From contig OZ220488.1 of the NCBI GenBank assembly GCA_965116155.1, positions 1,496,318-1,560,317 on the forward strand: 64,000 nucleotides of DNA. Direction: 5' to 3'. This document shows, piece by piece, positions 46,960-57,047 of this stretch. The DNA comes from Bdellovibrionales bacterium. Lineage in GTDB: Bacteria; Bdellovibrionota; Bdellovibrionia; Bdellovibrionales; UBA1609. How positions within the stretch are numbered: the stretch's first letter is position 1; each line of letters opens with the position of its first letter. The translations under genes and the position numbers were made by a program. The notes under the pieces were generated by a model. That model was not told the DNA's origin and did no database searches. It saw only the letters and a program-made list of their open reading frames with translations.

Positions 46960-47810
46960 AGGTAGACGGATGGCTTGTAGTAGCTTTATAGGCCGCAAAA
47001 CAAACTCGGGCCTTTCGTTTGTCCCAAGGATAGACGCGCCTGAGCTGCCCTTGGGACTGCACTTTCTGGCAAGAGGTGTCCATGGCGTTAAGTTAATCTG
47101 GCAGCTTAGGTCACGCCTTGGTTTATCGCGATCAATAAAGCCCGGACGCAGGCGACATTGTTTTTCTCGGCTTATATAAATCGCACTTGCGGGTACGGGC
47201 TTAGACCTAACCTGCAGGGCCATAGACAGCTTCATAGACCGCCAAAACACCTCTTGGCTTTCCGCTTGCCTGGAGCACCCAAGGGTGCTCATCAGGCTGC
47301 GCTTCCAGCAAGAGGTGTCCATGGCGTTAAGTTAATCTGGCAGCTTAGGTCATGCCTTGGTTTATCGCGATCAATAAAGCCCGGACGCAGGCGACATTGT
47401 TTTTCTCGGCTTATATAAATCGCACTTGCGGGTACGGGCTTAGACCTAACCTGCAGGGCCATAGACAGCTTCATAGACCGCCAAAACACCTCTTGGCTTT
47501 CCGCTTGCCTGGAGCACCCAAGGGTGCTCATCAGGCTGCGCTTCCAGCAAGAGGTGTCCATGGCGTTAAGTTAATCTGGCAGCTTAGGTCACGCCTTGGT
47601 TTATCGCGATCAATAAAGCCCGGACGCAGGCGACATTGTTTTTCTCGGCTTATATAAATCGCACTTGCGGGTACGGGCTTAGACCTAACCTGCAGGGCCA
47701 TAGACAGCTTCATAGACCGCCAAAACACCTCTTGGCTTTCCGCTTGCCTGGAGCACCCAAGGGTGCTCATCAGGCTGCGCTTCCAGCAAGAGGTGTTTTG
47801 GCTAGTCTGT
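46960..47810. repeat. module E followed by a 239-bp tandem repeat x3 (47071-47787)
   Basis: aagaggtgtc recurs at 47071, 47310 and 47549, with aagaggtgtt at 47788, giving a 239-bp period. Units are near-identical (for example tcacgcc / tcatgcc / tcacgcc). Each ends in a family-H hairpin. Confidence 0.95.
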
Positions 47811-47821
47811 AACTTTAACTT

Positions 47822-47898
<77 letters not shown>

Positions 47899-47913: not shown

Positions 47914-48783
47914 CTACTTAAGGCCCACAATATAAGCCACCCAAGAATCCACCTCCTCCTGCGTAGCTTCGCATGCAGCAAAATCTCCACTCCCCTCGCC
48001 CTCTGGCGTAGTACCTTCCCAGTACACCAAGCAGCGTTTGAACCCAACCTCTAAAAGAATATCCTTCAGCTCACGCATTCCCCAAAGGCGCCAATCGTAC
48101 TCGAACACCTTTTCATACTTGCGCCCCTTGAAGGGCCGAAAATGTATCCAAAACTTCCCCTCTTGATTAATGGGGTCATAAAAATCCTGATCCCAATAAT
48201 AGGTGAACTTATTGCCATGGCGCGTAGACTCCTCCACTGCACCCATAACATCTCTACCACCAAAACAGTCTAAAACAAAAATGCCATCCCTCTTTAAGCG
48301 CCGCAAGCTAGAGGCAAAATAAGCCCGCATTTGAGCGCGCTCCTTTAGCACAAAATAAGAAAAATTCTGCGCCACCACAATATCTAAACCCCCAGGTAGG
48401 TCTTGATCTAACACACTTGCTCTGCACAATTGCAGGCGTGATTTTTCGTCCTTGCTTAGCTCGGCTCCATAAACCCGTTGCCCATAATCCAAAGGCTCCT
48501 GGTCCATGTCCACACCCACAGCTCTTCTATGAGCGCCTGCCTTTATCCACTCGCAACTAATTGCAAAAGTCCCGCAAAAATCCTCCCCCAATCGTTGGGC
48601 AGGTTTATTGCGCAGGTCTTTATAAGCCTGATCCAAAAACTCCACATCCCTCTCCGGCGATTGCACAGCTTCACGATAATAAGCGTACTTATCAAAAACT
48701 TTGCCCAAACCCGATGTGCCTTTACGCCGCCGAACCATGGCCTGTTGTATTAACACACTCAGAACCTTAATGCCATGCATCAA
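47914..48783 (-). CDS. class I SAM-dependent methyltransferase
   Basis: 289 aa. LGEDFCGTFAIS (motif I-like) followed by VGVDMD (acidic motif II). Substrate unknown. Confidence 0.6.
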   Translation of the reverse strand: MMHGIKVLSVLIQQAMVRRRKGTSGLGKVFDKYAYYREAVQSPERDVEFLDQAYKDLRNKPAQRLGEDFCGTFAISCEWIKAGAHRRAVGVDMDQEPLDYGQRVYGAELSKDEKSRLQLCRASVLDQDLPGGLDIVVAQNFSYFVLKERAQMRAYFASSLRRLKRDGIFVLDCFGGRDVMGAVEESTRHGNKFTYYWDQDFYDPINQEGKFWIHFRPFKGRKYEKVFEYDWRLWGMRELKDILLEVGFKRCLVYWEGTTPEGEGSGDFAACEATQEEVDSWVAYIVGLK

Positions 48784-49042: not shown

Positions 49043-50326
49043 ATGCATCGCGCAATAGTTTCTCTATTTATTGGGCTCTTGATTTTGGGCTCTTTGTCCC
49101 ATGGGGCGAGGGAGTTTTTTAGCTTAGGGGTGGGGGATGCGCACTATATCAGCGCCGAAGGAGTGCAAAAGGTGCTGGTACAAAAAGAGGGGGTGGTGCG
49201 CGTAGAGCCGGTGGAAGATGGGCGGGTTAAGGTGGTGGCTTTGGCCCCAGGGAGCGTGTTGGTGCGCGCACAGGGAGCCCATGGCGAGAGGGTGTACAGT
49301 GTCAGGGTGCATGCGCAAAGTGCGTTGCAGCACTTTCAAAAAATCAAGCAAGTTGCACAAAAAGCCAAGGGTTTAAGCGCGCACTTGTTGGGTGGTCGTA
49401 CCTACGTGCGGGGGCGGCTTAATAAAATGCAAGACTGGCACGACCTGGCGGCCTTGAGGGTGCCGTATAGTTTTTCGGCTCTAGTGCCTAAGGCTTTGCG
49501 GTTGCAGAGTTTGTTGTTTTTTTCAGAGCTTTCGCAGGCGCATCATTTACCTGTGCCACTGATATATTTTTATCCTGAGACTTATGTGAGCTTGGGTGGT
49601 GCTAAAGACAGCCTAGATCTAAACCGTGTGCGCAGTCTGTTTAAAGCCTATGGTTTAACCGTGCACCACAATCCACAGCAGCTACTGATAGAGCCCACTT
49701 TGCGCATACAGGTTGTGCTAGCGGAGGTGAACCTTAAATCCAGCCGTCTTTATGGTCTTAACTGGGGCAGTGGTTATGAGGCCGAGCTTTTTAAAGCCAG
49801 TCCCAAGTGGCCGAGTTTAAAGGTGGCCTTGAATGCCATGGCCACCAAAGGGCATGGGCAAATACTAGCGGCGCCGACTCTTTTGTGCCGCAACAAAGGT
49901 GAGGCTAAGTTTTTAGCTGGCGGCGAGTTTGCGGTTGTAAGGCAAATCAGCCGCTTTCGTAGCAGTGTCAGCTGGAAAGAGCACGGCATAAAGCTAACAC
50001 TAAAGCCCCAAGTGCGGCGTAATGGGCGGATGAAGCTTGATGTAGATATTGGGATTTCTCTTATAGATGAATCTCAAAAAATACCCGGCGGTATGCCGGC
50101 GCTTAAAACCAACAAAGTGTCTACACAGTTTGATCTTAACTCCAGCCAGAGCGTTTATTTGTCGGGCCTGATTAGGCGTAGCTTGGGCCGGTCTTCTGAT
50201 GGGCTGCCTTTGCTAAAAGATATTCCAATTTTGGGTGCACTTTTTGGTAGTCGTGCTTTTCAGAAAAACAAAACAGATTTAGTAATTTTTATTACACCAG
50301 AGCTGGTGAACCACAAGCCTATTTAA
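49043..50326 (+). CDS. secretin, CpaC/RcpA-like (427 aa)
   Basis: Signal peptide. N-terminal pilus-assembly beta domain (VLVQKEGVVRVEPVEDGRVKVVALAPGSVLV). C-terminal secretin signature GLPLLKDIPILGALFGS....K.DLVIFITPELV. Confidence 0.8.
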   Translation: MHRAIVSLFIGLLILGSLSHGAREFFSLGVGDAHYISAEGVQKVLVQKEGVVRVEPVEDGRVKVVALAPGSVLVRAQGAHGERVYSVRVHAQSALQHFQKIKQVAQKAKGLSAHLLGGRTYVRGRLNKMQDWHDLAALRVPYSFSALVPKALRLQSLLFFSELSQAHHLPVPLIYFYPETYVSLGGAKDSLDLNRVRSLFKAYGLTVHHNPQQLLIEPTLRIQVVLAEVNLKSSRLYGLNWGSGYEAELFKASPKWPSLKVALNAMATKGHGQILAAPTLLCRNKGEAKFLAGGEFAVVRQISRFRSSVSWKEHGIKLTLKPQVRRNGRMKLDVDIGISLIDESQKIPGGMPALKTNKVSTQFDLNSSQSVYLSGLIRRSLGRSSDGLPLLKDIPILGALFGSRAFQKNKTDLVIFITPELVNHKPI

Positions 50327-50341
50327 GTTTAGGAGGCCCCC

Positions 50342-51520
50342 ATGCAGCAAGCTATTTCTCACCCTCTAATAGAGCACAAGCCCTTGCGGGCTGAGGCTGT
50401 GCCTAATAAAAACTTAGACCCAGAGGTAAAGGGTTATTTTGATAAAATTTTTGAAGAAGCGCAGGTATCTTTAGATTTAGACTTAGCGCAAATACACCAA
50501 ATGAAAAGCACATATGACTGCATTTTTCAAAAATGCGAAGCCCTGCCTCAGAATGTTAAAGGCCGTGTACAGTGTGAGTTTTTTGGCTTAGGGCCTCTAG
50601 ATGCTTTGGTTGCTTGTCCAAGAGTGACGGAGGTTATTATTAACTCGTATAACAATATTTGGTTTGAAGAGGGTGGCGGGCTAAAGAGGCTTAAAGATAG
50701 TTTTTTGTCGCACATTACTTATACGAACTTTGTTTTAAGGCTTTGTCAGCAAAGCCAGGTGCAAACCCATTTGAATCAGCCCTTTGTAGACACCATGTGG
50801 CGCGGTTTCAGGGTGCATATTATCCAGCCCCCTTTGGTAAAGGGCCAGGTGCATATGTGCCTAAGGCGTCACCCTGATAGCCCTTGGACTTTGGAGCGTT
50901 TGCAGGAGGCTAATTGGTGTACGGCACAAGAGGCAGATTTTTTGTCACTTCTGGTGCGTGATAAAAAAAGCCTGCTCATTGTGGGTCCTACTAGTACAGG
51001 AAAAACATCTGTAATGAATGCTCTAATACAAAAAATCCCTCATAACGAAAGGCTGCTCATTATAGAAGATACCGATGAGCTTAGTTGCCCCAACGCAGCC
51101 AGTGTCAAGCTGTTAACGCGCACGAGTGGCATGGGGCAGTTGCGAGATTATTTGCAAGACGATCTACTGAAGCAGGCGTTACGGATGCGCCCTGATCGCA
51201 TTGCTGTAGGAGAGGCAAGAGGTTCGGAGGCTAAAGATTTGCTTATGGCTTTTGCTACAGGGCATAGTGGTGGCTTTTGCACTCTGCATGCTCAAACAGC
51301 ACACCAGGCTTTGTACAGGCTGGAGATGATGATCCAAATAGGGGCGCCTCAGTGGAGTGTGCAAACTGTGCGTAAACTTATAGGCTTGTGTGTGCCTTAT
51401 ATATTGGTTTTAGAAAACACCAAAGGCAGCCGCAGAATTAAGTCTATAGAGCGGGTGGCGTCTTTAGAGCCTACGGGCTTTTGTTTAGAGCGTATAAATT
51501 GCCATGAATACATGAACTAA
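50342..51520 (+). CDS. CpaF/TadA/VirB11-class secretion ATPase (392 aa)
   Basis: Walker A VGPTSTGKTS, LIIEDTDEL, LRMRPDRIAVGEARGSEA, TGHSGGFCTLHA. AGGAGG RBS. Confidence 0.85.
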   Translation: MQQAISHPLIEHKPLRAEAVPNKNLDPEVKGYFDKIFEEAQVSLDLDLAQIHQMKSTYDCIFQKCEALPQNVKGRVQCEFFGLGPLDALVACPRVTEVIINSYNNIWFEEGGGLKRLKDSFLSHITYTNFVLRLCQQSQVQTHLNQPFVDTMWRGFRVHIIQPPLVKGQVHMCLRRHPDSPWTLERLQEANWCTAQEADFLSLLVRDKKSLLIVGPTSTGKTSVMNALIQKIPHNERLLIIEDTDELSCPNAASVKLLTRTSGMGQLRDYLQDDLLKQALRMRPDRIAVGEARGSEAKDLLMAFATGHSGGFCTLHAQTAHQALYRLEMMIQIGAPQWSVQTVRKLIGLCVPYILVLENTKGSRRIKSIERVASLEPTGFCLERINCHEYMN

Positions 51521-51552
51521 ATACATGAACTAATTTTTTTGCTGCATCTGCA

Positions 51553-51824
51553 TGGTAGTATAAAAAGCATGCAAAATGAGAGGTTCTCTCTGGGGGGTCC
51601 TATAGTGCACGAAATATGTAACTTGTCGCAGGTTTAAGTATTAGCCCTTGTGCACTGAAGTATGTTCTCCGGCTGACTCTGGCGCAAGTTAGGGCGCTAG
51701 ACAGCTAAAAGGCATCTATGTGCCTGTAAGACATATTGTCAAAGCTCTAATATGGTATGAGAGCTCGCCAGCCGGAAGCCGGAGAACATACTTCAGTCAC
51801 GATGTGGTAGTATAAAAAGCATGC
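51553..51824. repeat. 252-bp insert bounded by 20-bp direct repeats
   Basis: tggtagtataaaaagcatgc occurs at 51553-51572 and 51805-51824. The second copy contains the ATG of the TPR gene. Confidence 0.85.
51654..51797. mobile_element. MITE-like 144-bp element with perfect 20-bp terminal inverted repeats
   Basis: actgaagtatgttctccggc (51654-51673) is the exact reverse complement of gccggagaacatacttcagt (51778-51797). The interior carries reverse family-D flank gcgctagacagct. Confidence 0.55.
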
Positions 51825-53071
51825 GCTGGTACATAGGTTGGGTTAGTGTTGTGCTTTGCTGCGGCATGCCGCATGTGGCGTGGTCTAGCAAAAACACCAA
51901 GTCTCCCCCAGGTCGCTCTAACCAAACTAAAATCGAGGTAGAGCCCGGATTTAGTTTAGAGCGCTCAGGTCCTGTTAGTCAGCAGCCCAATACACAAGCC
52001 AACAAGCACCTCAACAAGCGCCCTGGCCGCGTGCAAAAGCCGCAAAAAACTCCACAGCGGCATATTGCTAGCGTGCAAAAAAGGCGTGCGCTAGAAATAA
52101 AGCTCAAACAAAATCCAGACCATGTGCCCACTCGTGAGGATTTAGCGGACCTCTATTACAAAAGCAAAAACCATAAAAAGGTGGTTGTAGTGTTGGCGCC
52201 TTACTCTAACGAGATTGGTTTTGATAGTGTAATGCTATTGTCGGATTCCTATGCTCAGCTCAAAAAATGGGACGCCAACATTGCACTTTTAGAAAGGCTG
52301 ATTCAAAAAACCACCCCCCCGAGGTTTAGACCGTATTTTTTGTTGGCAAAAGCGCTTTTACAAAAAGGCAATCAGGATGAAGCAGCAAAAAACTTAGAGC
52401 AAGCCACACTTTTGGCGCCGAAGCATTTGCCGAGCTTTAGAATGCTTGTAGAGTTTTACGAGGAGCAAAAAAACTGGTTCGCGCAAAGGAGCCTAATTTT
52501 AAACGCCATGAAGGCCATGGGGCCAAGAGGGGAGTTTTTAAATGCACTATGCTCGGCTCAAACTCAAGCCAAGTTGGTTAAGGAGAGCATTTTAGCCTGT
52601 AAAAGGGCTATTAAAAAAACCCCCTCCTACGAACCCAACTATATAGACTTAGCTTATGGTCTAGCTTATCAGGGCAAAACGGCGCAGGCAGAAAAAGTGC
52701 TAACCCAGGCGGCTAAGAAGTTTAAAGGGTCAGAGTTTATACAGTGGTCGGTGGGGGAGTTTTTTTTCTCTCAAAAAAATTTCATGGTAGCGATAAGGTT
52801 TTTAAAAAACGCCGTACAAAACAAGCCCAACTCGGCGCGTGGGCATTTGGCTTTAGCGATTTCTTTGTTTCAAGGGGCTTTTTACAAAGACGCTCTTAAG
52901 CATTATATGCTGGCCTGCAAATATGAGGACTCTGGGCCTCAAAAAAGCCTAGAAGAGTTTCGTACAGCTTTGGCTAAACTTAGTACCTTGAGCCAGACAG
53001 ACCCCGAGCTGCTTAGCATGCTAAGTGCATACACCAAGCAAGAAGCGCGTTGTGTAAAGGCTCAACCATAG
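51821..53071 (+). CDS. secreted TPR-repeat protein (416 aa)
   Basis: Signal peptide VVLCCGMPHVAWS, a basic Pro/Gln-rich linker, then helical repeat units with the A..Y/L..A TPR pattern. Confidence 0.6.
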   Translation: MRWYIGWVSVVLCCGMPHVAWSSKNTKSPPGRSNQTKIEVEPGFSLERSGPVSQQPNTQANKHLNKRPGRVQKPQKTPQRHIASVQKRRALEIKLKQNPDHVPTREDLADLYYKSKNHKKVVVVLAPYSNEIGFDSVMLLSDSYAQLKKWDANIALLERLIQKTTPPRFRPYFLLAKALLQKGNQDEAAKNLEQATLLAPKHLPSFRMLVEFYEEQKNWFAQRSLILNAMKAMGPRGEFLNALCSAQTQAKLVKESILACKRAIKKTPSYEPNYIDLAYGLAYQGKTAQAEKVLTQAAKKFKGSEFIQWSVGEFFFSQKNFMVAIRFLKNAVQNKPNSARGHLALAISLFQGAFYKDALKHYMLACKYEDSGPQKSLEEFRTALAKLSTLSQTDPELLSMLSAYTKQEARCVKAQP

Positions 53072-53087
53072 GCTAAACTGGCCTTGT

Positions 53088-54680
53088 ATGTTGAGCGTGG
53101 GTGTAGATATTGGCAGCTATAGCATTAAGCTTGTTGCAGCCAAAATGGCGGGCACGCGTTATGAGGTGGTGCGCGCAGAGGAGTTTAGGTTTTCTACCAA
53201 ACCCAATGCCGACATTAGTCTGGAGACTTTAGAGCACTTAAAGCATATTGTGTCGCTTTTTAACACCGGGCAGGCGCGGTTTGTGTTGGCTTTGCCTGAT
53301 CGGCACGTGTGCACGAGGTCGATTTTTTTTCCGTTTAAAGAAAAGCACAAAATTTTAAAAACCCTGGCTTTTGAGCTAGAGGATAAAATTCCGTTTTCTA
53401 TGCATAACTCTGTGTGCGATGTGCAAATGGGTCGCCCCATGTTGGGCGGAGTGCAAACTTTGGGTGTGGCGGCTTTAAAAGACAAAATCGGCGGTTATTT
53501 AGAGACCCTTAAAACTTCAGGCCTGCAGCCTTATGTATTGGGGGTAGAGAGCTTGGCATTTGCGAATGTGTTTTTGTTGTCGCAAAAAAATGCAAAAGCA
53601 GAAAGGTCAAAATACTGTGATGTGTTGTTAGACTTTGGGCACCAAAGCACTAAGGTGGTTTTGGTATCGGGCCAGTATATTTTAGATGTGGGCAGTGTGG
53701 ATTGGGGCATGCACAATGTTATTGAAGCCATCGCGCACAAGTACAGCTTAGGTTATTTAGAGGCCTTAGGGGGAGTGCGCAGCAAGGGGCTTAAGGTTTT
53801 GTTAGATTACAAAGATGCCTCAAGGCGCGATACGGCGTTGTCTCAGGTGGTAAAAAAGGCTTTTGGGCCTTTCTTAAGAGAGTTGATGCTGCTTTTAACA
53901 GAGTGTCAAAGCGAGCATTCTGTGCAGTGTGGTCGTGTGCTGTGTAGTGGTTGGGGTGCGCGCATAGAGAACGTGGCAGGTTTAATAACCCAAGGGATCA
54001 ATATGCCAGTGCATGTTTTTGATGAAACCGGCACAGGAGTGCGGGGTGACTGGTCGTTAAAGGAGCATCCGTCTTATCTTGGGGCCTTGGGTTTAGCGCT
54101 TGAGGGGTTTAAGCGCTCAAGCACTCGGGGGCCGAACTTTTTAAAAGGTGCTTTTAAGCCTTCGGGTCAGGATATAGGGGCGATGTTTAAGCGTTGGCGT
54201 GTGGGTTTGTCATCGGCTGTAGCGCTGTATTGTTTGGCTTGTGTGTGGGGCGTTTGGAGCGCATCACTGGGTCAAAGGCTATCCGATGATACCTATGCAG
54301 CTTTAACAAAGCATGCAGTAAGCATTACGGGCTTGCCACGCAGTCAGGTTAAAGTGCCTACTATTCAAAGTTATATAGACTCTGCAGATGCGCGCAAAAA
54401 ATTCTATGCTTCTTATGAGAGTTGGCAAAAGGCTCCTTCGGCGCTGCATGTGTTAGCACGTTTAAGTGAGCTTATGCCGAAGACATCTTTGGTTGTGCAA
54501 AAGTTTTTATTTGAGCCGTCGGTTTTAAAAATCGCAGGCCAAGGAGAGCCGACGGATGTGCGTGCTTTGCGAGAGGGGCTTAAAAACTTGGGCTTATCTG
54601 TTGAGGTAAACGACTTAGCTGCAGGCGAGCGGCCTGAGGGTGCGGGTTTTGGTTTTGAGGTGCAGATAAAAAGCTTGTAG
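53088..54680 (+). CDS. GspL-like bitopic protein (PilM-type actin-like domain + TM + periplasmic domain, 530 aa)
   Basis: N-terminal VGVDIGSYSIKLV (actin/HSP70-fold phosphate-1 motif), a single TM VGLSSAVALYCLACVWGVWSA at about aa 370, and a C-terminal ~140-aa periplasmic part. Confidence 0.6.
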   Translation: MLSVGVDIGSYSIKLVAAKMAGTRYEVVRAEEFRFSTKPNADISLETLEHLKHIVSLFNTGQARFVLALPDRHVCTRSIFFPFKEKHKILKTLAFELEDKIPFSMHNSVCDVQMGRPMLGGVQTLGVAALKDKIGGYLETLKTSGLQPYVLGVESLAFANVFLLSQKNAKAERSKYCDVLLDFGHQSTKVVLVSGQYILDVGSVDWGMHNVIEAIAHKYSLGYLEALGGVRSKGLKVLLDYKDASRRDTALSQVVKKAFGPFLRELMLLLTECQSEHSVQCGRVLCSGWGARIENVAGLITQGINMPVHVFDETGTGVRGDWSLKEHPSYLGALGLALEGFKRSSTRGPNFLKGAFKPSGQDIGAMFKRWRVGLSSAVALYCLACVWGVWSASLGQRLSDDTYAALTKHAVSITGLPRSQVKVPTIQSYIDSADARKKFYASYESWQKAPSALHVLARLSELMPKTSLVVQKFLFEPSVLKIAGQGEPTDVRALREGLKNLGLSVEVNDLAAGERPEGAGFGFEVQIKSL

Positions 54681-55454
54681 GTGGGTGTGCAGGATATTGT
54701 AGATAGATTAAGGGAGCTTGTTAAGCAGCTACTGTTTAGGTTGCAAGAGAGTGCTTTATACTCTCAGGTGGAGGAGAGATTTTTTGCTCTTTCTCTTAGA
54801 GGGCAACGACTAGTGGTGTGGGGTCTGGCTGTGACACTGCTTTTAGTGGTGGGCAGCGTGCCGTATGCGTTTTACCAGGATGCGCGTGCACGTTTTACAG
54901 TGGTGCAGCAGGATCGGCAGCTTTTGAACCATCTGTTTAAGGCAGCTCAGGTGCCCTCGGCCTTTAGTGTGCCGCAGTTTGGGGCAGGGGAGCTTGTGGA
55001 GCGTATTAGTGCATTGTTGCAAACGGAGCTGCTAGCGCCTCAGCAGGTGCAGGGGGTGGGGGTTGCGCAAGGTCGGTCGCCGCGCTTGCAGGGCGTGTCG
55101 GTTGTGGCGCAAGAGGTAGTAGAGCTAAAGCTGGCGGGGTTAAATGTGTCGCAGGTGGTAAAATTAGCAGAGCAAGTGGAGTCTTTGAGTCCGAGTGTGA
55201 AGCTAGCGGGTTTGCATATGGAGCCTTCGGCTTTAACAGAAGCCCAAGGCAGTGCTGGGTATTTTGATGTGGTGTTTCACTTTGCTGCTGCTAAGTTTCC
55301 TGAGACAAAGCCGCTTGCGCAGGCAGTAGCAGAAGGTGCAACGCAGCCTGCTGCTCCCTCTGGTGCGCCGGGGGGTGATGCAGGTGCGCCGGCCACGCCT
55401 CCTGCTGTTCCTGAAGCTCCTTCGGCTGATGCGCCCGACACAGGAGGCGTCTAA
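54681..55454 (+). CDS. GspM/PilO-like bitopic protein with Pro/Ala-rich tail (257 aa)
   Basis: GTG start directly after the upstream stop. Cytoplasmic helix, TM LVVWGLAVTLLLVVGSVPYAF, periplasmic domain, then tail AAPSGAPGGDAGAPATPPAVPEAPSADAP. Confidence 0.45.
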   Translation: MGVQDIVDRLRELVKQLLFRLQESALYSQVEERFFALSLRGQRLVVWGLAVTLLLVVGSVPYAFYQDARARFTVVQQDRQLLNHLFKAAQVPSAFSVPQFGAGELVERISALLQTELLAPQQVQGVGVAQGRSPRLQGVSVVAQEVVELKLAGLNVSQVVKLAEQVESLSPSVKLAGLHMEPSALTEAQGSAGYFDVVFHFAAAKFPETKPLAQAVAEGATQPAAPSGAPGGDAGAPATPPAVPEAPSADAPDTGGV

Positions 55455-56398
55455 TGGGTCTTATAAGGGGCTTGGCACGGTTTTTAACTTTGATTTTAAA
55501 GTCCCACAAAAGGCATGTGTTTTTGTGGGTGGTGGTGTTTTTTGGTTTTGTGGTGCTGCTTTTCCCGTACCAAGAGGCTTTGGAGTATGGGGCGGGTTTG
55601 GTGTCTCGTGCTACTAATCAAAAGTTACATATGAATTTTGAGCAAGCAGGGCTTAGTTTTTACCCTTTGGGGTTGAAGCTTACTAAGGTGAGTGTAAAAA
55701 GTCCTTTAAGGCCGGGGGCGCTAGAGGCTGAGAGCCTTGTATTGGTGCCGGTGTGGCGCGAGTGGGCTTTGCTTAAAATGGCTCTTGGGCTTAAGCTGAG
55801 CAAAGTGTTTGGTGATGGCGAAATGGACATTATGTTAAGCCTGGGTCGGGGTTTAAGTGGTGAAAAAGGTCTAAAGCTGCGAGCTAAGGATGTAGATGTA
55901 GAGCCTTTGTGCATGCTTTTAGCTTGTCCCGTTGTGTTGAGGGGTAAGTTGGGTGTGGATGTGGGCGCCCAGGTGGATATGGAGGATTGGGCTCAGTCTC
56001 AAATAAGTTTGCGTGCTAAGGCGCAGCCTTTGGGAATGGCGTCTGGTAGCTTGGCAGGTTTTAGGTTGCCAGGCTTGGAGTTTAAGACGGCGCAACTGGG
56101 CGTGGTGTTTAAGGAGAGCAGGTTAGACATGAGCGAATTGGCTTTGGGTGAACCTGCGGATCCTTTGGCTGTAGAGGCGAGGGCGCGGGTGGCTTTGAGC
56201 GACAAGCCTCAGTGGAGCGTGGGTAAGTACACGGTGGACATGAAAATCAAGGCCAAGCACTCTATAAAAGAGGAGCCTTTTATTCAGCTGGTACTGAGTT
56301 TTGTGGATCAGTTTAAGACTCCTCAAAGTGGCCAAGACAGTTACGCCTTCAAAATGACCGGCACCGGCCTGAGTAACCCGCCCCAGCTAGCACCTTAG
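55454..56398 (+). CDS. GspN-like membrane-anchored protein (314 aa)
   Basis: The start overlaps the upstream TAA stop by 1 nt (taATGg). N-terminal TM VFLWVVVFFGFVVLLFP followed by a beta-rich body. Assignment rests on position and architecture only. Confidence 0.4.
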   Translation: MGLIRGLARFLTLILKSHKRHVFLWVVVFFGFVVLLFPYQEALEYGAGLVSRATNQKLHMNFEQAGLSFYPLGLKLTKVSVKSPLRPGALEAESLVLVPVWREWALLKMALGLKLSKVFGDGEMDIMLSLGRGLSGEKGLKLRAKDVDVEPLCMLLACPVVLRGKLGVDVGAQVDMEDWAQSQISLRAKAQPLGMASGSLAGFRLPGLEFKTAQLGVVFKESRLDMSELALGEPADPLAVEARARVALSDKPQWSVGKYTVDMKIKAKHSIKEEPFIQLVLSFVDQFKTPQSGQDSYAFKMTGTGLSNPPQLAP

Positions 56399-57047
56399 CT
56401 GTTCAAATACCGCTCTAGCTTTCTTAATGAGACGTATAGCAGGTTTTTAAAAAACGGCGCGGGTCTTAGTGCAAAAAATCAAGAGCGTTTTCGTGCCATT
56501 TCGGAAAAATTAGGTGCTTTAAGTATTCAGTTTAACGACAACCTTAGGCGAAGTACTGCGGACTTTAAGTTATATTTGAGCGAGGATGAGATATCAGGGT
56601 TGCCTGAGGATTTAAAAGCCGTCGCCTGCAAAAAGGCTCAAGCTGCAGGCGGTAAAAATCAATACGTGATTGGCATAGACTATTCGGATTATCTACAAGC
56701 CATGAAGTACTTAGATAGTTCTGAAGCTCGGCGTAAGCTATGGGACGCCAAGGGCAAGGTGGTGACCTCCCCTTAAAAATCATAGTGTGTCTTTAAGTAT
56801 GGGGCATATATTTTACAGTGGATACGATGCGGTTTTATACAGTTACCTTTGGTCTGAGATGTTGGTGGCGGGTGCTTGGCCGGTGTTTGAGCGGGGTGGT
56901 TTTTTGTCACACAAAATGGGGCGCCGGTTTGAGGAGTGTATTTTATCTAAAGGCAACACTCAGGATGCGGAGGTTTTGTTTGCGGATTTTTGCCCACACC
57001 AACCTACTGCCCAAGACCTAATCCAATTTTGGGGATTTAAAGACTAG
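56399..57047 (+). pseudogene. remnant of an M3-family peptidase (Dcp / oligopeptidase A) lacking start, catalytic core and HExxH
   Basis: Frame 2, 56399-56776, has no start codon until 56576 and reads FLKNGAGLSAKNQERFRAISEKLGALSIQFNDNL...EISGLPEDL...YLDSSEARRKLW (N-terminal third of Dcp/PrlC). Frame 3, 56787-57047, reads GHIFYSGYDAVLYSYLWSEML...RRFEECILSKGNTQDAEVLF (extreme C-terminus). About 400 aa in between are missing. Confidence 0.8.

Follow-up and report, generated by a model that had tools for sequence, protein, structure and literature searches.

In Bdellovibrio bacteriovorus HD100, the tight adherence (Tad) genes comprise a TadZA fusion gene alongside tadB, a tadC that stands apart, an rcpA-tadA module in duplicate and a solitary tadA3; deletion of rcpA2-tadA2 causes no predation defect, the module has a distinct expression profile, and a tetratricopeptide repeat (TPR) gene was noted near tad genes (Tesseur et al. 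2026, bioRxiv 10.64898/2026.07.08.737194). The same preprint describes dispersed Tad genes for Bdellovibrio, an arrangement that is rare in general (PMC6668835). Dispersal has also been described for a type II secretion system (T2SS), the Lsp system of Legionella pneumophila, which occupies five distinct chromosomal loci and has some parts co-transcribed with unrelated genes (White and Cianciotto 2019, PMC6617341). Here we analyze a 64,000-nt stretch of the genome of a Bdellovibrionales bacterium (GCA_965116155.1, contig OZ220488.1, positions 1,496,318-1,560,317; hereafter the window), in which parts of both kinds of system stand in one tightly packed six-gene cluster: genes for a Tad-type secretin (rcpA2), a TadA/CpaF-class ATPase (tadA2) and an exported TPR protein, followed by the T2SS genes gspL, gspM and gspN (Table 1).

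An earlier note on this DNA had read the cluster as either a divergent, split system or an uncharacterised hybrid. We conclude that rearrangement of a reduced 1.61 Mb Bdellovibrionales genome very probably brought three independent pieces side by side, the pieces being the accessory rcpA2-tadA2 pair, which Bdellovibrionales have besides their main and dispersed Tad pilus machinery, a solitary exported TPR gene and the gspL-M-N tail of an ordinary T2SS cluster. The description as a split system holds for L, M and N, since the nine other T2SS genes lie at five other loci, whereas the description as a hybrid is not supported, the gene order being found in none of the other loci examined. Recurrence of the six-gene block in other genomes, which the note had raised as a question, was looked for in three sets of loci and was seen in none of them: 0 of 26 Bdellovibrionales loci with the secretin-ATPase pair, 0 of 10 T2SS loci of relatives and 0 of 80 metagenomic loci with GspL homologues. 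Of the 26 pair loci, 12 come from relatives and the other 14 are likewise from Bdellovibrionales, with cultured B. bacteriovorus and three genomes of Bdellovibrio sp. among their sources, and flanks were examined up to 10 kb, contig ends permitting; the ten relatives compared for their gspN neighborhoods come from several families of the order Bdellovibrionales; and the 80 metagenomic loci were returned by a scan with a three-sequence GspL alignment as query.

Within these sets the two outer pieces keep different company. The short secretin and ATPase genes are adjacent in all 26 pair loci, and neither L, M, N nor any other gsp gene lies beside the pair in the examined flanks of any of them. 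The L-M-N orthologues are the final three genes of a gspC-D-E-F-G-H-I-J-K-L-M-N cluster in all ten relatives, and every metagenomic locus long enough to show gene order has gspD-E-F-G, pseudopilin genes and then L-M-N. No TPR homologue was found in the pair loci or T2SS loci examined. The gene immediately after gspN is ssb in eight of the ten relatives. In the present genome ssb stands beside gspJ-K at genome 826 kb, and this locus thus preserves the ancestral K|L and N|ssb junctions, the site from which L-M-N was removed.

The secretin matches PF00263 (E 6e-36), and an RcpA2 profile of our own making picks it at E 2e-140, with the three other secretins of the genome scoring far lower. The ATPase matches T2SSE (E 2e-31); its best NCBIfam matches are TadA, TrbB and VirB11, all under cut-off, and GspE is far behind. 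Against the TadA equivalog TIGR03819 it scores 205.7 bits, below the cut-off of 373, and its membership is therefore at the level of class and orthogroup, not of the equivalog. A distinct orthologue of this ATPase is present in all 30 relatives searched, the best match being 37-50% identical in 29 and weaker, at 34%, in one, and the orthologues from relatives' pair loci share 36-46% identity with it; the two other TadA paralogues of the relatives are ~32% identical to the window ATPase and separate from the tadA2 orthologue. In an ATPase tree, from which one Kutzneria open reading frame (ORF) with a very long branch was left out, the window gene falls in a supported set (Shimodaira-Hasegawa-like approximate likelihood ratio test, SH-aLRT, 95) made up of tadA2 sequences alone, including that of B. 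bacteriovorus, with TadZA, tadA3 and actinobacterial TadA on the opposite side and GspE/PilB remote. Monophyly of all 21 tadA2 sequences is recovered with weak support (53). The calls of a secretin and a CpaF/VirB11-class ATPase in the earlier note thus stand, and the tree adds a tadA2 placement away from GspE/PilB. The window pair is the duplicated rcpA2-tadA2 module of B. bacteriovorus, where we equated the pair with the "tad locus 2" of the preprint by deduction, as the only unfused tadA beside an rcpA, and not by locus tags. The TadA-type ATPases of two metagenome-assembled genomes labelled Bacillota group tightly with the C-terminal domain of the TadZA of this genome (support 97-100), an unexpected placement for Bacillota that suggests mis-binned contigs or horizontal transfer.

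The second piece, the TPR gene, encodes a secreted protein as first read, with matches to several TPR Pfam families and a signal-peptide-like segment at its start that the closest relative's protein also has. Two close homologues were found among 5.8 billion proteins, each 39% identical, and in the metagenomic contig of the closest relative the gene is solitary between opposite-strand genes. In about 11 more distant relatives, the distance between the best TPR homologue and the TadZA gene is 7-8 kb, and in the two closest relatives the homologue is on another contig than the TadZA gene. An identity as the TadD-like or TPR partner of tad locus 1 was considered on this ground. The window gene may share its ancestry with the TPR gene noted near tad genes in the preprint, from which it would then derive, and it appears to have an origin separate from those of both its neighbors. 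A disguised GspK, considered on account of the same position in the gene order, was rejected; the real gspK lies at genome 823-824.6 kb and the window protein consists of bona fide TPR repeats.

For the third piece, the assignments made from the letters alone as GspL-, GspM- and GspN-like were all borne out. The gspL product matches PilM_2 (E 4e-19; 69 bits against a cut-off of 27) and has one transmembrane (TM) segment at residues 372-390, giving the PilM domain, TM segment and periplasmic domain of the GspL architecture; it does not reach the gamma-proteobacterial GspL equivalog TIGR01709 (15.7 against a cut-off of 65) and is therefore placed with the PilM-like type of GspL. It is the single GspL copy in the genome, the sole other PilM-domain gene being pilM of the type IVa pilus (T4aP). 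The gspN product reaches the Leptospira-type family TIGR04411 GspN_Lepto (59 bits against a cut-off of 50), and GspN is present in one copy in this genome and in one clear copy in each of the 30 relatives.

The gspM product, by comparison, gave no meaningful match in profile searches against Pfam, NCBIfam and PDB, and a word-based homologue search returned the protein itself alone. Pfam T2SSM (PF04612) has no sequence match to it, with one of 11 orthologues reaching E 0.064. We modeled its fold with AlphaFold on 25 homologues from metagenomic T2SS loci. The model (mean predicted local distance difference test score, pLDDT, 80.5) has cytoplasmic helices, a long TM/coiled-coil helix, an alpha-beta-beta-alpha-beta-beta domain at residues 102-204 and a disordered tail, and a Foldseek search placed PilO on top (3jc8 chain Oa, E 2.4e-4; 2rjz, TM-score 0.51). 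The fifth protein is thus modeled as GspM/PilO-like, and its gene is single-copy and lies between gspL and gspN in ten of ten relatives (nine by blastp, the tenth by position). The Pro/Ala-rich tail ascribed to it earlier is a Pro/Ala/acidic low-complexity segment (residues ~205-257; window 55290-55454; pLDDT 51-65), and the GspM tails of relatives are Lys/Arg-rich.

The remaining T2SS genes are all found elsewhere in the genome, which is a single 1.61 Mb contig of 49% GC with an estimated completeness of 93.6%. GspC (NF041515 GspC_delta, 192 bits against a cut-off of 150), GspD (TIGR02517, 527 against 351), GspE (TIGR02533, 717 against 630), GspF (TIGR02120, 448 against 424) and GspG (TIGR01710, 121 against 89) all exceed their curated thresholds, the genes of GspD, GspE and GspF being at genome 491-495 kb and 613-614 kb. 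GspH, GspI, GspJ and GspK were identified not through curated families but by searches with proteins of the relatives and with profiles derived from the orthologues in corresponding positions, at E 1e-40, 5e-47, 1e-62 and 3e-109, respectively. All twelve T2SS genes are single-copy, with one open frame each and near-full profile coverage, and they are spread over six loci (C-D-E; F and I together with an inverted G; J-K; H; and L-M-N). There are two Peptidase_A24 prepilin peptidase genes, one PilD-like (260 aa; genome 93 kb) and the other of 172 aa (1198 kb), and pilB-pilT-pilC-pilS-pilR lies at 199-206 kb. The six-gene cluster itself lacks platform, pilin, peptidase and GspC genes, as had been noted from the sequence, and genes for platform, pilin and peptidase that together make a standard set are present at other loci for both the T2SS and the Tad system, which is the finding that the note itself had named as one to refute its reading.

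At the gspF-G-I locus, where gspG is inverted relative to gspF (genome 612264-615364), a 162-aa ORF between gspF and gspI resembles repeat-derived filler and not a pseudopilin gene. A gene for a 523-aa membrane-anchored protein with no relation to secretion separates gspE from pilM (genome 489422-490993), and one relative encodes an orthologue of this protein (57% identical) ~5 kb downstream of its rcpA2-tadA2 pair.

These observations bear on a reading in which the six products form a functional hybrid machine, a Tad/T2SS chimera with RcpA2 as pore, TadA2 as motor, the TPR protein, and GspL/M/N as alignment and platform subcomplex. The tight same-strand packing of the genes, the lack of a platform of its own or an assigned function for rcpA2-tadA2, and an L/M/N divergence slightly beyond expectation could all be accommodated by such a machine, and GspL/M/N as its alignment subcomplex would give rcpA2-tadA2 a first assigned function. 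The arrangement is, however, absent from all three sets of loci, L, M and N are single-copy and needed by an otherwise complete and intact T2SS, a polytopic platform and a pilin would still be missing, and homologues of PilMNOP/GspLM are lacking or very rare beside Tad systems (Denise et al. 2019). We consider a hybrid machine very unlikely.

Tad parts outside the window were named from Pfam T2SSF, T2SSE and Secretin matches and from homology to relatives, and not all by curated Tad models. On this basis the Tad set of the genome appears to mirror the repertoire of B. bacteriovorus HD100 (Table 1). The contexts of the pair have changed in several respects. A receiver/histidine-kinase gene precedes the pair in most relatives' loci and in the annotated B. 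bacteriovorus locus; no orthologue of it was found when this genome was compared with three of the pair loci, and the search gave just a weak PilR match. Genes resembling flp, tadE and tadG lie a few kb upstream of the pair in several relatives' loci, and here the Flp cluster stands ~190 kb from rcpA2-tadA2. Among the flagellar-type neighbors of the pair in relatives, all named from sequence motifs and not from profiles, a gene of 491-507 aa has no tblastn match in this genome, a MinD/ParA-like gene has a weak match and a sigma-factor-like gene is retained at 64% identity. This pattern of neighboring genes hints that the reduced genome has lost genes for motility and regulation.

Table 1. Features of the six-gene cluster and its flanks (window positions, nt) and of T2SS and Tad loci elsewhere in the same genome (genome positions)
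Feature	Position	Strand	Description
rcpA2 (secretin)	window 49043-50326	+	427 aa; Tad-type, short; signal peptide
tadA2 (ATPase)	window 50342-51520	+	392 aa; TadA/CpaF class; no TadZ fusion
Hairpin repeat element	window 51553-51824		252 bp between 20-bp direct repeats
Exported TPR protein gene	window 51821-53071	+	416 aa; single copy; several TPR Pfam families
gspL	window 53088-54680	+	530 aa; PilM-like cytoplasmic domain 1-341, TM 372-390, periplasmic domain
gspM	window 54681-55454	+	257 aa; GTG start; bitopic; predicted PilO/GspM-class fold
gspN	window 55454-56398	+	314 aa; Leptospira/delta type; N-terminal TM segment
M3 peptidase gene remnant (right flank)	window 56399-57047	+	Peptidase_M3 match at 56787-57047
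239-bp x3 tandem array (left flank)	window 47069-47796		sequence repeat
tRNA-Ile(GAT) (left flank)	window 47822-47898		between tandem array and rcpA2
Methyltransferase-like gene (left flank)	window 47914-48783	-	separates tRNA-Ile from rcpA2
gspC (delta type)-D-E	genome 491-496 kb		adjoins pilM-N-O-P-Q; outside window
gspF, gspG, gspI-like pseudopilin gene	genome 612-615 kb		outside window
gspK and gspJ	genome 823-825 kb; locus with ssb 823281-826541	-	beside ssb (+); outside window
gspH	genome 1356 kb; locus 1356341-1359176	-	back-to-back with Flp-like pilin gene; outside window
TadZA-like fusion and TadB-like genes	genome 1378.6-1381.8 kb		fusion of 779 aa
TadC-like gene	genome 151 kb		next to FHA-like genes
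RcpA-like secretin and putative RcpC/CpaB genes	genome 286-289 kb		491 aa and 288 aa; RcpC/CpaB by position alone
tadA3-like gene			378 aa
Flp-like pilin (115-aa ORF), TadE-like and TadG-like genes	genome 1357-1358.5 kb		in the gspH locus, together with a gene for a secreted protein of 203 aa

All six ORFs of the cluster lie on the plus strand at the positions first given for them, and the close packing reported for the last three genes is exact, the gspM GTG directly following the gspL stop and gspN overlapping gspM by 1 nt; the spacings from rcpA2 to gspN are 15, 300, 16 and 0 nt, followed by the 1-nt overlap. The 300 nt that separate tadA2 from the TPR gene contain the 252-bp hairpin element, and read from the sequence the gap minus this element is ~48 nt; the second copy of the 20-bp direct repeat provides the ATG of the TPR gene. 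A perfect 13-bp tandem duplication (AATACATGAACTA x2.1) lies over the tadA2 stop at window 51507-51533, so that the final codons and the stop are repeated just 3' of the gene. The flanks had been described as repeats on the left and a decayed gene on the right. The right-hand part is correct, the C-terminal 80 aa of a Peptidase_M3 protein being recognizable (E 2.4e-13; 56787-57047) and the preceding segment 56399-56776 having no Pfam match; the left-hand part is not, as the tRNA-Ile gene and a methyltransferase-like gene intervene between the tandem array and the secretin gene.

The hairpin element raises the question of whether the cluster could be an assembly artefact, in which tadA2 and the TPR gene were connected across a dispersed repeat and the two halves are not truly adjacent. 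The element does sit exactly at this junction, but its flanking 20-bp direct repeats are clean, as with a simple insertion, the genome is assembled as one contig, the 16-nt junction between the TPR gene and gspL is free of repeats, and five other T2SS breakpoints show the scrambling to be genome-wide. Such an artefact is extremely improbable and, even if true, would strengthen the conclusion that the pieces are separate.

If the six genes are truly adjacent, their juxtaposition might be kept for co-expression, with the accessory Tad module and the T2SS assembly platform coupled under one promoter in the absence of any physical hybrid. Gaps of 15, ~48 (before repeat insertion), 16, 0 and -1 nt are suited to a single unit, promoter and terminator scans over the six-gene cluster gave nothing above chance, with no convincing internal promoter or terminator among scores at chance level, and the receiver/histidine-kinase gene found 5' of rcpA2 in relatives is missing here, so that regulation will have changed. 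Against this, the 252-bp hairpin element in the gap before the TPR gene could terminate or process the RNA and thereby split the unit, and an arrangement seen in a single genome provides no evidence of selection for it. We regard retention for co-expression as unlikely.

How three unrelated pieces could come to lie so close together is best explained by operon capture. In our preferred account of separate pieces brought together by rearrangement, scrambling of the genome would have broken the T2SS cluster and the Tad loci alike, and gspL-M-N, severed from gspK and ssb, would have landed behind the TPR gene with a 16-nt gap. A promoterless gspLMN fragment would survive only directly behind expressed genes on the same strand, and it is this requirement that best explains the tight same-strand packing; we infer both the capture and a co-transcription of the six genes. 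In T2SSs, GspL is established to interact with GspE and with GspM. The products of the displaced genes most probably keep this normal role, by analogy with other T2SSs, with the actin-like cytoplasmic domain of GspL holding GspE, the GspL periplasmic domain pairing with GspM, and GspL, GspM and GspN together with GspF and GspC forming the inner-membrane assembly platform that would build the GspG/H/I/J/K pseudopilus under the GspD secretin.

Three points weigh against this account. The six genes share one strand with gaps of at most 48 nt once the inserted repeat is subtracted, and the sequence may therefore reflect a single transcript, shared regulation or shared function. We know of no function or dedicated platform for rcpA2-tadA2 in any species. 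Lastly, GspL, GspM and GspN of this genome are ~16-18% less similar to those of relatives than the relatives' proteins are among themselves. GspD, GspE, GspF and TadA2 have no such drop in similarity, and smaller drops are seen for GspC (12%) and RcpA2 (9%). The divergence of L/M/N is thus mild and common to other envelope components, and these three proteins are not singled out for a new role.

The main value of the analysis lies in a corrected annotation. Cluster-based tools would label this locus a strange hybrid and the gspC-D-E and Flp loci "truncated" or "orphan", whereas the organism in fact possesses one T2SS and one dispersed Tad system, both complete, together with a T4aP. The genome offers a clear example of a normally contiguous twelve-gene secretion cluster split into six pieces with every gene intact, and because all T2SS genes are intact despite the splitting, we argue that the T2SS is still under selection in this small-genome relative of Bdellovibrio. 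The locus also illustrates how promoterless operon fragments could survive by landing behind other genes, and the comparison extends to the order as a whole the rcpA2-tadA2 module recently described in B. bacteriovorus, a result that may help to find its role.

Set beside known systems, the window genes resemble PilM-PilN-PilO of type IVa pili in that the GspL N-terminal domain matches PilM_2 and the GspM model is closest to PilO structures, but a separate pilM-N-O-P-Q operon is present at genome 483-489 kb and the window genes are orthologous to L and M of the T2SS. The pair agrees with rcpA2-tadA2 of B. bacteriovorus in having a short secretin gene followed by one for an unfused TadA-type ATPase that is orthologous by tree, and differs in lacking the receiver/histidine-kinase gene upstream and in having TPR-gspLMN in place of flgM/aspS downstream. 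The T2SS as a whole has the same twelve components as the Delta/Leptospira-type T2SS of Bdellovibrionales (NF041515, TIGR04411), with L-M-N in the same order and as tightly coupled as in relatives; the relatives hold these genes in one cluster, while here they occupy six loci, with L-M-N behind unrelated genes. The Legionella Lsp system is likewise a complete T2SS with genes dispersed round the chromosome, but it belongs to another lineage with another type of GspL and GspN, and its arrangement is genus-wide, whereas the present one is that of one genome whose relatives keep a single cluster.

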